Positions 44,402 through 63,092 are shown, numbered from the stretch's first letter. The stretch: 64,000 bases of DNA from an uncultured Clostridium sp. (GCA_947073285.1 CAMTJT010000005.1:12351-76350), one strand, 5' to 3'. A program made the numbers and translations. Notes: a model not told the origin generated them from the sequence alone.

Positions 44402-44548
44402 ATTGAATTTATGACTAATATAAGAAAGGCGTGCGTTAACGGAAGTAAAACTTCCAACACACACTTGTGCAAGTTGCTTCGCAACTGCACAGACTAAGGA
44501 AACCTAACCTTGTTGTATAGGAAAAATCTGTGATTTTTTCCTATACAA
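44402..44548. repeat. 147-bp GC-rich structured repeat, copy 1 (possible small RNA); the inverted copy is at 62945-63092
   Basis: Three hairpins: ggaagtaaaacttcc; ttgtgcaagttgc-ttcg-gcaactgcaca; ttgtatagg...cctatacaa. About 90% identical to the other copy. The first hairpin shows a compensatory double substitution. Confidence 0.6.
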
Positions 44549-44550
44549 TA

Positions 44551-44595
44551 AAAAATGAGATTAAGTTAAAAATATAACTTAAATCTCATTTTTCT
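44551..44595 (-). terminator. Rho-independent terminator downstream of the giant surface-protein gene
   Basis: aaaaatgagatttaagtt-aaaaatat-aacttaaatctcattttt. Confidence 0.55.
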
Positions 44596-44651
44596 ATAGG
44601 CTTTTACAGCCTTCTTCTAAGAATTTTATTTACTATATAATAACAAATTTA

Positions 44652-47600
44652 TTAAAATTCTCGTAAACCAAAAGTGATAAATCTTACTACTTTATTATCA
44701 GCACTTGTTATATCTGCTTGTGCAATATTGTCTAAATTCCAAATGCTTTCATCTAAAAGTAATCTATTTGTGTAAAATTCTTTTGTCAACAACTCAGCAT
44801 TAGTAACTACACTTATACCGTCTATTGTATCACTTGCTGTTCCATTTGCCTCTTCATTTTCATAGCAATTTTCAAAAGTTGCATTTGCTCCATCTACTAC
44901 ATTTCCTATAAATTTGTTAATTGGATTGTTATTTTGTTCTAGCTTATTAATCATTGCTGAATTTTTTACAGTTAAGTTTCCATCTCCTACTTTGGCAACA
45001 AATCCGCTCCAAGTTCCTGCATTGCTAGCTGAGCCACAACTCATATAGATATTGGCTATTACATTTTCAATGGTAACATCTCCTTTGCTTAAGGATACTA
45101 CACCACCATTTTGCATACCGCTTCCATATAACTCTCCTTGTACATAACAATTCTTGATACTTCCTCCTGTTTTAACTGCAACCATTGCTGATAGTTTGCT
45201 TCCATAACTTCTACCATTTACATAAGCCTTTTCAATATGAATATTTTCATAAGTACAATTTTCATCTTCCACAACCATAGTTGCAACACCTGTATTTCCT
45301 AGCATAGTCATATTAGTAAATTTCATATTGGTAAATGTTGCATTAGTTGCTTTTAGTGCAAAAGCTGCAATCTTAGATCTCATTGGGTTACTTGAACTCC
45401 AATTAATAAATCCATCTTTCCAATTTACTCCATAAGCATAATCTTTCATGTTTAGTCTATCTACTTTTCCTGAAAAATGTTCAAATAGTGCTGCATTTGC
45501 TAGGTTAGAAATAGTATGGTTATTACCTCTAATTTCTCCATAAAATTCTCCTGTTATGACTGACCATGACCCTTTCCAATCATACTTCATATTAGAAAAG
45601 TCTATATCATCTTCGATGGTAAATATAGCATCTGGATGCGCTTGTAATAATTCTTTAAATTCTTCTGCAGAATGTATTGCATAGGTATCAACCTTATTAA
45701 TTAATGTTTTTTCATTTGGATCCCCATTTTTTAACTTTGGAATACATTCTTGGCTTACATAGCTTAAATCCCAAACTTTGGTATCAAATCCTAAAGTATT
45801 CGTATAAAATGCTTCATTCGTAATATCTTGCTTGGTTGCTACACTTATTCTTCCTGTAAAATCAATATCTTCTCTTGCCCCAGTTGAAATTCCTGTATTT
45901 TCTTCGTATTCGTAATTTCCTTCAAAGCCTTCTATCTGGTCACTTGCTGTTCTTCCATCAAACTTATATTGTTTCATTTGATTTCCTAGTGCAATATTAT
46001 TCTTAACTACAGAATTTCCTTCTGCTTTTCCTAATAGTCCTGCTACACCTGCATTTCCTAGCACTTTCACTGTACTAAAGCACTTTGTTATATTAGATTC
46101 TCTTAAAATTCCTACAAGTCCTCCTATATCTTGATTTCCTCTGGCATTTCCTAGAGAATAACAATTTTCAACGGTCGTATTGTTAATTGCTTCTCCTATC
46201 AATCCTCCACAAGCATTTCCAGAAGCTATCGCAGCACCATTACTGCTACTTTCTTTGATATGAGATGCTCCTACATAACCTGTAAGTATTCCTACTCTGC
46301 TAGTTCCTGTAATATTTGCTCCAATGATATGTACATTTTCCAAATTACTAGAAGTCATAATACCAATTAGACCACCTGTATTATTATTTTTATTAGTTAC
46401 TTTAATATCTTTTGCTAATACATTTGTAAGTTCTACTTTGTCTGCTATTTTAGCAAGTGCTCCTACATCTGTTTCATTTTTATTGATATTGCTTCCTTCT
46501 AATTTCAAATTAGCAAGTTTTGCATAACGAATTGTATGGAAGATTGGAACAGTATTTCCTTTTAAGCTATGATTTTTTCCATCTATCTCTCCTATAAATT
46601 CACCACTAATGATATCCCCCGTACTTTCTAAACTAGATAAGTCAATATCATTTTCTAATGTAAAGTTTTCATCTGGATACTTTTCTATTAAGGTTCTAAA
46701 TTCTTCTTCGGTACGTATTTCATGAACTGGTACATGAATTTCCATGCTCTCATTTGGGTCACTATTCTTTAAGGTTGGTGTTTTGCAAGACGCAACTGTA
46801 CTAAAGTCCCAAATTTCCTCATTCCAGCCTAAAGTATTGGTATAGAAGTCTTTACTTGTTACATTTTGTCTGTTTGCTACGTTTATTTTTCCTGTGAAGT
46901 CAATGTCTCCTCTTGCCCTAGTAGAAATACCTTTATTTTCTTCATATTCATAATTTCCTTCATATGTTGCTAGTTGTTCTTGAACCGTTTTACCATCAAA
47001 TTTATAGTGCTGTCTAACTTGATTTCCTAATGCTATGTTGTTTTTAACAATAGAATTTGTAATAGATTGCCCTACAAATCCTGCAACACCATCTGTTCCA
47101 TCTACTTTTGTTATACTCAAAGAATTGCTTATTGTAGATGCTTTACTTAAAAGTCCTACAAATCCACCAACATTTTGGTTTCCTTTAGCTGTTCCTCTTG
47201 CATAACAGTTTTCAACCATTGTTCCATTGGTGATTTCTCCCATAAAGCCACCAACAGCATTACCTGTACCAGTAGCAGTTCCATTACTACTACATGCTTT
47301 TATGTTAGAATATCCAATATATCCTGCAAGTGTTCCCACACGGTTAGTTCCTGTTACATTTCCTCCAATGACATGTACATTTTCTAGGTCTCCATAAGTC
47401 ATAATACCAATTAATCCACCAGTATCATCTCTTCTGTTTGTAACTGTGATATCTTTTCCTACCACATTTTTAAGTTCTATATTATCTGCTATTTTAGTAA
47501 GTGCTCCTACATCTGTCTCATTTTTATCGATGTTACTTCCTTCTATTTTTAAGTTTTCAATATAAGTATGTCGAGTTGTATGGAAGATTGGTACTTTGTT

Positions 47601-62157: not shown

Positions 62158-62206
62158 AAACAGAAAAACCAAGTTTCTACTTGAAACTTGGTTTTTCTGT
62201 TTATAA
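62158..62206 (+). terminator. Rho-independent terminator of the GC-rich two-gene island
   Basis: acagaaaaaccaagtttc-tact-tgaaacttggtttttctgt followed by ttataaattt. Confidence 0.6.
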
Positions 62207-62239
62207 ATTTATAATTATGTTTTTTAGTTATACATTTAA

Positions 62240-62829
62240 TTTTATACTTTTTCTAAACATTTTTCTATGACTTCTTCTAATTGATTGGTATTTATAATAG
62301 ATGCTATACTAGCCTCTAACATTTCTTGTGGAGATACCTTTTTCAAATTTAAAATATATCCATTTTTTAACGCTAATTGCCTAATAAACTCTCTGTTTGC
62401 CCTTCCGATTTCCTTCTCTAAATGAATGTAATACATTTAACTCTGCTAAATAGTAAGCTAATTTTTGGGAAAGCTGTTCTTTTGTTAGCCCTTCTAGATA
62501 TTTCTCTTTTTTCAGTTTACTCAATAAATTTTCTAATTCAGACTCTATATATTCCCACATAGCGAAACGAAACTCACCTTTTGCAATATTTTCTTCTCTT
62601 AACTTTCCTGCAAATGGATAGATATCTTCAAATAAATATCTATGAATAGATAGAAAATGTGCTTTATCAAATTCTCCTGTAATTCCGTTTTTGCCTTATT
62701 CCTAAAGATTTTGCAGCAGTAATCTTTGCTTCATAATATTGCAATTGTTTTGCATCTTGTATTTTCATTTTATTAATCAAAACATCACTGTTTGGATAAC
62801 AATATTTTGAATTTCTTTCCATTTTTACA
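62240..62829 (-). CDS. Fic/Doc-family protein (AMPylator-type toxin), with two apparent +1 frameshifts at CGG (62685-62687 and 62405-62407)
   Basis: MERNSKYCYPNSDVLINKMKIQDAKQLQYYEAKITAAKSLGIRQK-R(CGG)NYRRI* / +1 GITGEFDKAHFLSIHRYLFEDIYPFAGKLR...LHSFREGN-R(CGG)KG... / +1 GRANREFIRQLALKNGY. Removing each C yields the Fic motif HSFREGNGRANR. Confidence 0.6.
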
Positions 62830-62944
62830 CATATAATCCAATTTTTAACGATTAGATTATTTCTCCTTTTTTATCTTATTTTATCTCAATACTTTCAAGT
62901 ATTCAAGATAAGAAAACCCTCAAAATGTTAAATTTTTCTTCAAC

Positions 62945-63092
62945 ATTTTGAGGACTTTTTTATTGTATAGGAAAAATCGCAGATTTTTGCTATACAACAA
63001 GGTTAGGTTTCTTAGGTTGTGCAGTTGCAAAGCAACTTGCACAAGTGTGCGTCGGAAGCTTTGCTTCCGTTAACGCACAACTTTCTTATAAC
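62945..63092. repeat. 147-bp structured repeat, copy 2 (inverted relative to copy 1 at 44402-44548)
   Basis: Its reverse complement aligns end-to-end with copy 1 (ataagaaag...cctatacaataaaaaa). The first hairpin is ggaagCaaaGcttcc versus ggaagTaaaActtcc in copy 1. Confidence 0.6.

Follow-up and report, generated by a model that had tools for sequence, protein, structure and literature searches.

The Bacillus cereus group A repeat bcr1 is an intergenic Firmicutes sequence of ~155 bp whose distribution is not conserved between related strains (PMC3184786). It is bounded by short flanking direct repeats and forms independent stem-loops with compensatory changes, and many of its copies have lost stability; it duplicates a 5-bp target, is known to be transcribed, and is considered a class of its own among non-autonomous mobile sequences (PMC3184786). 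Here we describe two inverted copies of a GC-rich, hairpin-forming element in a 64,000-nucleotide stretch of DNA from an uncultured Clostridium species (GCA_947073285.1, CAMTJT010000005.1:12351-76350; hereafter the window). We conclude that these segments are probably members of a family of non-coding, modular, non-autonomous mobile interspersed repeats of uncultured gut Clostridia. The closest described analogue appears to be bcr1, in the sense that the two would work alike and not that they belong to one family, a comparison made from published descriptions and not from sequences. Size, patchy distribution, flanking direct repeats, compensated stem-loops and copies that have lost stability are common to both. 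The element of the window differs in its host clade and in its flanking repeats, which are imperfect and 8-10 bp long where bcr1 has a 5-bp duplication. Furthermore, neither its position beside terminator hairpins nor its construction from two modules (X and Y, below) is described for bcr1 in the available part of PMC3184786.

Other known repeats resemble the element less closely. BOX, RUP and SPRITE of Streptococcus pneumoniae, and REP and BIME of enterobacteria, are also small intergenic sequences that form hairpins, are often found at the ends of genes and have structures resembling terminators (PMC3184786), but there is no sequence relation to them. PMC3733652 describes REPs as 20-40 bp long, usually tagged with GTAG or CGTC, and as linked to RAYT transposases. 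The palindrome of module Y is close to this size, yet it has no GTAG or CGTC tag at its foot, and the window encodes no Y1 transposase. [quoted passage not shown] Unlike it, MITEs are defined by terminal inverted repeats that match a parent insertion sequence (IS) and by target duplications.

A family of modular, hairpin-forming repeats

The first-pass annotation of the window had reported inverted copies that are about 90% identical. Both the pair and the identity hold, although the coordinates given were off by up to 18 nt. A repeat finder recovered paired arms at 44419-44501/63008-63090 (83 nt, 88%) and 44499-44538/62972-63011 (40 nt, 95%), BLAST aligned the copies at 90.5% identity over 137 nt, and the conserved spans are ~135 bases each (Table 1). 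A 22-mer of the element, allowing up to three mismatches, occurs twice in the window versus 0.00 expected. By pairwise alignment, the likeness starts at ATAAGAAAG and stops at CAATAAAAAA, and the flanks cannot be aligned. Because the flanks are unrelated, the copies are not the edge or any other part of a larger duplicated segment, an origin that the annotation had itself raised.

Folding of both copies bears out the three hairpins proposed for each of them, and in each case a fourth, non-homologous terminator-like hairpin forms directly downstream. Fold z-scores against shuffled sequences are -9.4 and -11.3 for copies 1 and 2, respectively, and single hairpins of the family have high stability, each folding at -13 to -29 kcal/mol. 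Hairpin 1 does carry the noted paired change in its inner stem (ggaagT...Acttcc versus ggaagC...Gcttcc). This change is accompanied by non-compensatory differences: stem 1 of copy 1 has a C.A mismatch, and stem 3 of copy 2 a C.C mismatch. A UUCG tetraloop had also been claimed. Copy 1 does contain the letters UUCG, but its predicted loop is a UUC triloop closed by a C-G pair, and the corresponding loop of copy 2 is UUU. Because C(UUCG)C is unable to close a canonical tetraloop, we rejected this feature.

When genomes and metagenomes were scanned for more copies elsewhere, as the annotation had proposed, the tally rose to 14 insertion sites in related uncultured Clostridia, in varied and unrelated intergenic contexts. 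The first additional contigs were picked because they encode the same proteins of 56 and 49 amino acids (aa) as the window; copy 2 is also present in four of them (L001, L002, L003 and L005), and a third copy occupies the CmpB-SpoU spacer ~60 nt past the right end of the window (L001 2096-2259). Scanning one genome per species with an 18-mer gave 17 matches, which equals chance expectation, and only three were real: L025 in the Clostridia metagenome-assembled genome (MAG) ABMPRH_45_1, and L027 and L035, both in the Clostridia MAG LOHA05_bin.005. A linker 18-mer, run over metagenomes, yielded six further real loci (L036-L040 and L045). A relative with an 88% identical SpoU protein (L070) has two diverged copies at loci of its own, one between mraZ and rsmH (L070A) and one between pemK and a sortase gene. 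No copy was present in ~135 kb from other relatives (L067-L069, L073 and L076-L081), and BLAST searches of phages and plasmids and pattern scans of IMG/VR returned chance matches only, with no family member. The copies occur in a narrow clade of gut Clostridia that are uncultured, low in GC and spore-forming. Many short-read contigs have an end within the element.

Searches against known RNA families were negative. Rfam (release 15) gave no match at gathering score over the whole window, and at E <= 1-5 around the copies it gave only sub-threshold hairpin look-alikes (Srn266 at 29 bits versus a cutoff of 63; SSRC10 at 23.5 versus 56). There was no match at E <= 0.1 in four other loci, and a scan for tRNA and tmRNA found none.

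The unit of the family is ~135-165 bp long and is composed of module X followed by module Y. Module X consists of ATAAGAAAGG and two GC-rich hairpins. Hairpin 1 has 7 bp, a 3-nt bulge and then 6 bp with an AAA loop, and hairpin 2 has 5 bp, a 1-nt bulge and then 6 bp. Module Y consists of the leader GAAACCTAACCTT, an AT-rich palindrome of 16-19 bp (hairpin 3, with arms TTGTATAGGAAAAATC ... GATTTTTCCTATACAA and a loop of either 3-5 nt or ~28 nt), and the tail CAATAAAAAA with an A-tract. No stretch of the family is better conserved than the Y leader with its unpaired linker GGAAACCUAACCUUG, which lies between hairpins 2 and 3, and this holds even in decayed copies. Imperfect direct repeats of 8-10 bp bound the unit. 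The left one is the constant ATAAGAAAGG, while its right-hand partner, ATAAAAAA(GG) or, in another rendering, ATAAAAAAGG, varies at its end, and the two sides differ systematically by G versus A at position 5. Forms that depart from the XY arrangement (Table 1) include two in which hairpin 2 is broken and folds at only -2.1 kcal/mol (L045 and L039). BOX and BIME sequences are also built of modules in different combinations.

Both loop forms of module Y have been observed at the copy 3 locus. Hairpin 3 has a 28-nt loop in L001, L002 and L006 and a 3-nt TGC loop in L007, like that of copy 2, 1.1 kb away. This switch could reflect gene conversion between neighboring copies or an indel of the loop segment.

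A coding function was considered and rejected. Copies 1-3 share an open frame (..CVNGSK.S..HLCKLL.NC..), but there is no conserved start, 2-nt indels occur elsewhere, and the stop is lost in L035. Since the sole shared reading frame is broken in other copies, the element is non-coding. In L039 (1024-1070), an inverted right arm of Y plus ~25 nt of long-loop sequence lies in frame within a gene for a PMT_2 membrane glycosyltransferase and encodes ..LFLLYRRNRLFALYS.. in a low-complexity loop. In-frame repeat insertions are known from Rickettsia, and the L039 case resembles these.

Covariation among further copies, a check that the annotation had called for, indicates that the hairpins are maintained, with double-sided changes above the shuffle level. 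Applied to nine copies, RNAalifold finds that three pairs covary in hairpin 1, all of them in its inner stem. In a model-based alignment of 13 rows, one of which is the copy 2 locus in another strain, 95.6% of pair cells are standard pairs and five pairs (9 cells) are altered on both sides, figures that lean towards the model because the alignment was fitted to it. The covariation score of the same alignment is 0.120 versus 0.096 in shuffles, with 0 of 500 shuffles reaching 0.120, and pairing falls to 28-55% in slid-partner controls. Compensatory changes found by hand inspection in hairpin 2 are GUUGC/GCAAC to UUCGC/GCGAA in L040 and A-U to G-C in L070A. Hairpin 3 has changed from GUAUAGG/CCUAUAC to GUACACAG/CUGUGUAC in L070B (L070 7177-7314), and from AAAAAUC/GAUUUUU to AAAUUUC/GAAAUUU in the upstream Y of L045. 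All three stems therefore show compensatory changes, side by side with broken stems and deleted hairpins; non-compensatory stem changes in additional copies, which the annotation had named as refuting evidence, were in part found.

Because the stems are kept by compensatory change, the hairpins must matter for something, although this does not tell RNA from single-stranded DNA, nor one strand from the other. A hairpin that is needed as single-stranded DNA during mobilization would keep covariation equally. A strand call was attempted from wobble pairs, with 16 pair columns showing G.U and 10 showing A.C, the equivalent of G.U on the other strand; it was abandoned, the difference being not significant and the alignment fitted to the drawn strand.

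Filled and empty sites beside terminator hairpins

Two of the three loci in the strain group of the window are polymorphic, and at both of them the difference is exactly one family unit. At the copy 1 locus, L009-L012 have the unit, whereas L016 and L017, contigs of two samples whose flanks match the window at 98% identity over 2.2-2.5 kb, lack it. The empty allele of this locus reads gactaat-AAAAAAAA-tgagatt, whereas the filled allele of the window reads gactaat-[ATAAGAAAGG...CCTATACAAT]AAAAAA-tgagatt. The copy 3 locus is filled in L001, L002, L006 and L007 (gtataaa-ATAAGAAAGG[TGTGCG...CTATACAATAAAAAAGG]TTAA(G/A)AATTAAC) and empty in five contigs from five samples (L082, L083, L084 (= L004), L085 and L086), where a single ATAAGAAAGG is retained (gtataaa-ATAAGAAAGG-TTAAAAATTAAC). 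For copy 2 and the L070 copies, precise empty sites were not obtained, the relatives being too diverged to align.

The remnants at the two empty sites differ. L016 has A8 with no trace of the element, while the empty allele of copy 3 keeps an element-type 10-mer with the diagnostic G. As a result, insertion is not distinguishable from precise deletion between direct repeats. Judging from these junctions, our preferred reading is that the empty copy 3 site arose by precise deletion between direct repeats and that the empty copy 1 site was never filled. On either account the unit is gained or lost as a block.

The strict position of the copies beside intrinsic terminators is the one unusual trait of this family. 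In all 13 copies with a complete Y end, an unrelated hairpin, most often the terminator of the adjoining gene, starts 2-21 nt after ...CAA. The 45-nt flanks fold on average at -9.9 kcal/mol on the 3' side versus -3.6 kcal/mol on the 5' side (Wilcoxon p = 0.008), with an intergenic background mean of -4.3 kcal/mol (1200 windows from the same loci). Read on the opposite strand, the order is hairpin, T-tract, element, and the T-tract is there in ~11-12 of the 13; for L025, L027, L037 and L045 the neighboring hairpin is a terminator on the opposite strand only. With three exceptions (copies 2 and 3 and L039), the 14 copies are antisense to local genes, and gene tables place these 11 between the terminator of the upstream gene and the start of the next gene, 12-163 nt away.

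The hairpin next to copy 1 (Table 1) is unlike those beside other copies, and alignment finds the one next to copy 2 unrelated to it in sequence. L016 and L017, whose copy 1 site is empty, carry the copy 1 hairpin without any change. Similarly, the hairpin beside L070A is also found in the mraZ-rsmH spacer of the window itself, which has no element. Since the neighboring hairpin is present without the element at two loci, we conclude that it pre-exists insertion.

Several other features were noted in this part of the window. The mraZ-rsmH spacer (60560-60860) carries many T-rich CTTTTGTA boxes, and the same boxes are found in L070, as is a hairpin TAGCACAAGCAGTTGGTAT...ATACCAACTGTATGCTA between the two genes. 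Three tandem 47-nt repeats lie downstream of rsmH (59323-59466).

Mobile repeats or functional RNAs

The mobile-repeat reading rests on several observations. The copies occupy scattered, unrelated sites, are polymorphic between strains at exact boundaries, and are patchy in relatives. Modular, truncated and decayed copies exist beside well-folded ones, and the element has no transcription signals of its own and is absent from RNA libraries.

A number of points weigh against this interpretation. No transposase is encoded in the window, and neither a transposase nor a recombinase is linked to the family, nor was an IS with matching ends found in the window or the fetched loci. The XY ends, ATAAGAAAGG... 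and ...CAATAAAAAA, are direct and not inverted repeats, and only Y is palindromic (16-19 bp arms), so the family is not a textbook MITE. A test for target duplication gave a constant left flanking repeat, a variable right one, A8 at one empty site and a retained ATAAGAAAGG at the other. A single junction rule, whether target duplication or attachment site (att) core, was consequently dropped, since the two empty sites disagree. The count of 14 sites comes from MAG fragments and contigs and does not give copy numbers per genome. Covariation is likewise expected of a functional RNA, and a single-stranded Y leader as the most conserved part would also suit an RNA seed.

The scheme that we infer for the mobilizing enzyme, the intermediate and the cause of the placement is one in which an enzyme encoded elsewhere would move XY, and also Y alone. 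The unit would end up at an A-tract beyond a terminator hairpin, through target choice by the enzyme or because insertions at such sites are tolerated. The hairpins might be required for mobilization, as folded single-stranded DNA or as RNA, and so would be kept in active copies, while copies would decay neutrally after insertion. Any effects on neighboring genes, which could gain extra stable hairpins in a 3' or 5' untranslated region, would be by-products.

A more specific proposal is that the ~135-nt unit is a terminator-seeking mobile element of a new type, moved by an enzyme that recognizes the T/A-tract and hairpin of intrinsic terminators. We regard this as doubtful. Such an element could use a folded single-stranded DNA or RNA intermediate, and X and Y could be copied separately, by analogy with ssr9 of ISPpu9 (IS110 family, Pseudomonas putida). 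In PMC12288879, ssr9 is a small structured RNA gene, found attached to another module or alone; an enzyme whose gene lies elsewhere copies it as a module in its own right. It is described there as selfish and as inserting at palindromic REP targets. Here, by contrast, the targets are A-tracts beside terminators and not REPs, and the window contains no IS110 gene. Group IIC introns also insert just downstream of intrinsic terminator motifs (an inverted repeat and then Ts) with fixed polarity, according to PMC1702495, and thus resemble the element in position. Unlike it, these introns are ribozymes of at least several hundred nucleotides with a GUGYG 5' end, a domain V and usually a reverse transcriptase. 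The element, at ~135 nt, has no Rfam intron match, and its end beside the T-tract starts with AUUGUAUAGG. A group II intron remnant was considered because of a GUGCG near the X end and rejected, because the junctions, size and Rfam results do not fit. If the placement does reflect target choice by the enzyme, it would point to a mobilization system that reads terminator structure.

The first-pass annotation had argued from the paired stem change to selection on RNA structure and hence to a small or cis-regulatory RNA. The hairpins are indeed kept, but the step to an RNA family is not supported for copies that are dispensable between strains, often partial, and promoterless. In one form of this idea, which we judge unlikely, the copies are a multi-copy family of trans-acting small RNA genes whose X-then-Y transcript ends at the adjacent terminator and uses the unpaired GGAAACCUAACCUUG as its seed. 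Three stable hairpins with compensatory changes, a linker that is the most conserved segment and is maintained in decayed copies too, and the hairpin plus T-run terminators that follow copies 1 and 2 in the drawn orientation all fit such a gene. The drawn strand also has the slight excess of G.U over A.C pairs described above, but this is not significant in an alignment fitted to that strand. Moreover, neither window copy has a promoter-like site within it or at its edge, and the 5' flanks across copies are unrelated. A T-run follows the downstream hairpin of the drawn orientation in only ~7 of 13 copies, and the prevailing orientation is antisense to neighboring genes. Copies are dispensable in near-identical strains and absent at the same loci in relatives, hence not conserved at orthologous loci, and Y-only and X-decayed copies persist.

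Alternatively, the element might act in cis, as RNA or DNA, to reinforce termination, block exonucleases or insulate genes in the manner of REP or SPRITE sequences. Every copy is set against a terminator-type hairpin, the copies sit in short spacers between the end of one gene and the start of the next, and their hairpins are very stable. We nevertheless consider this role quite improbable. The neighboring terminator works as a unit without the element at empty loci, hairpin 3 has no T-run of its own in either orientation, and the element is optional among strains. Target choice or tolerance of insertions explains the placement equally well.

It is very improbable that the element is a recombination site or RNA component of large serine recombinases or of a guide-RNA system (an att palindrome, an IS110 bridge RNA, or a TnpB/IscB scaffold): copy 1 lies 59 nt upstream of the 49-aa open reading frame (ORF) and recombinase operon, the Y module of L036 lies ~45 nt inside the end of an element with a serine recombinase, hairpin 3 is a palindrome with a short spacer, and the junction GUUGUAUAGG...CCUAUACAAUAAGAAAGG superficially recalls a repeat:anti-repeat duplex, but most copies have no recombinase nearby. 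An att site for the adjacent serine recombinases was rejected because the crossover of their element is at a gene junction (CAAGG) far from copy 1, and a palindrome spacer of 3 to ~28 nt is unsuited to a recombinase core site. Bridge-, guide- and tracrRNA-like functions were rejected because the fold has no large internal loops, the window has no Cas9, IscB, TnpB or IS110 gene as partner, the would-be guide is constant across copies, and there is no Rfam match to a guide RNA.

If the element is a mobile repeat, as we favor, it should be annotated as a repeat and not as an overlooked riboswitch or small RNA gene. It would explain why short-read assemblies of gut Clostridia break at these spots, and its presence or absence could be used as a strain-level marker. 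The family is a previously undescribed structured repeat of an uncultured gut lineage, although its biological interest is limited.

Surroundings of the two copies and other features of the window

The window comes from the chromosome of a spore-forming member of the Clostridia with low GC and carries Spo0A, the str operon and the dcw cluster. As the annotation had stated, copy 1 is inside an intervening element between its cargo and its recombinases, and copy 2 is between a Fic gene and a small ORF, its putative antitoxin in the annotation. Coordinates are collected in Table 1.

Table 1. Coordinates of the repeat copies, adjoining hairpins and host element in the window, and forms of the repeat at all loci
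Feature	Coordinates	Strand	Basis or remark
Copy 1, XY form	44420-44555	+	Sequence, repeat finder, fold; covariance-model match 161.9 bits
Copy 1, 5' end		+	ATAAGAAAGG
Copy 1, hairpin 1	44431-44462	+	
Copy 1, hairpin 2	44466-44491	+	
Copy 1, Y leader	~44492-44509	+	Single-stranded
Copy 1, hairpin 3	44510-44551	+	Palindrome
Copy 1, A6	44550-44555	+	
Copy 2, XY form	62956-63089	-	Sequence, fold; covariance-model match 157.5 bits
Copy 2, hairpin 1	63078-63047	-	
Copy 2, hairpin 2	63043-63018	-	
Copy 2, Y leader		-	
Copy 2, hairpin 3	63000-62962	-	
Copy 2, A6	62961-62956	-	
Hairpin of the 3545-aa gene	44556-44598		Bidirectional, terminator-like; adjoins Y end of copy 1, outside repeat
Hairpin at Y end of copy 2	62905-62958	-	Terminator-like; terminator scan: 20 pairs then TTTT
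Intervening element, host of copy 1	40992-56655	-	~15.7 kb; inserted in penicillin-binding protein (PBP; SpoVD-like) gene; Pfam and translations
PBP gene, 5' part	58542-56649		
PBP gene, 3' part	~40990-40693		
Large serine recombinase	41060-42622		Carried by ~15.7-kb element
Large serine recombinase	42561-44123		Carried by ~15.7-kb element
49-aa ORF	44211-44360		Carried by ~15.7-kb element
3545-aa protein	44652-55289		Cargo of ~15.7-kb element
Dockerin protein	55335-56270		Cargo of ~15.7-kb element
XY form			Window copies 1 and 2, L001 copy 3, L025, L027, L035, L040
Y alone, same 5' boundary			L036, L038
Y-X-Y			L045
Y-X-half-Y			L039
X partly deleted (hairpin 1 gone)			L037, L070A

The element that hosts copy 1 splits the gene for a penicillin-binding protein (PBP) at a CAAGG core. 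Translation of the 5' part ends ...GEGGHQQGVSL* at ~56650 and the 3' part resumes ...SQGGAVGAPVGG... at ~40990. Copy 1 itself lies between the terminator of the 3545-aa gene and the 49-aa ORF, ahead of the two recombinase genes, and such repeats thus colonize recombinase-bearing elements that split sporulation or cell-wall genes too. The gene for the 3545-aa protein has internal repeats of ~1040 nt (45592-48745). In L036, the PBP gene carries at the same position a different recombinase-bearing element, with a Dcm methylase and a 591-aa recombinase.

Copy 2 is flanked by a 56-aa ORF and by three fragments of a Fic ORF (Pfam Fic E = 1.2e-4, just under the cutoff), and relatives carry an intact pair of a 55-aa ORF and a 199-aa Fic protein. 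The Fic gene downstream of copy 2 (62242-62822, minus strand) is broken into ORF pieces of 51, 59 and 64 aa. This decay looks real, because the same 59-aa and 51-aa pieces were called in independent assemblies (L001-L003 and L005).

Between mraZ and Fic, a segment at 61750-62160 reaches 52% GC in a genome of ~27% GC and looks like foreign DNA. It holds a plus-strand 108-aa ORF (61789-62115), with a 68-aa ORF nearby (61425-61631), and neither ORF has a Pfam or Rfam match. Our first impression of this segment was of an RNA gene, which was ruled out by the plus-strand ORF and the lack of a match to any RNA family. A perfect 21-bp hairpin is located at 62157-62203.

Elsewhere in the window, apparent frameshifts split essential genes: MurE is in two ORFs (39070-40552), the PBP gene is interrupted at ~56880, and the N terminus of MurG is truncated (35435-36277). 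These suggest either indel errors in the assembly or real gene decay, and the lengths of homopolymers in the window call for caution. The str operon may contain a second small repeat or leader family. Two tandem repeats of 76-80 nt, 91% alike, lie upstream of fusA, which codes for EF-G (20077-20232), and an inverted 42-nt partial copy of this leader repeat lies upstream of tuf (17781-17822), all with a common CTGTAAAGCTCG..CGAGC core. Finally, five or six tandem 21-nt repeats (31038-31163) lie inside a 429-aa ORF with a sigma-70 region 2 domain.

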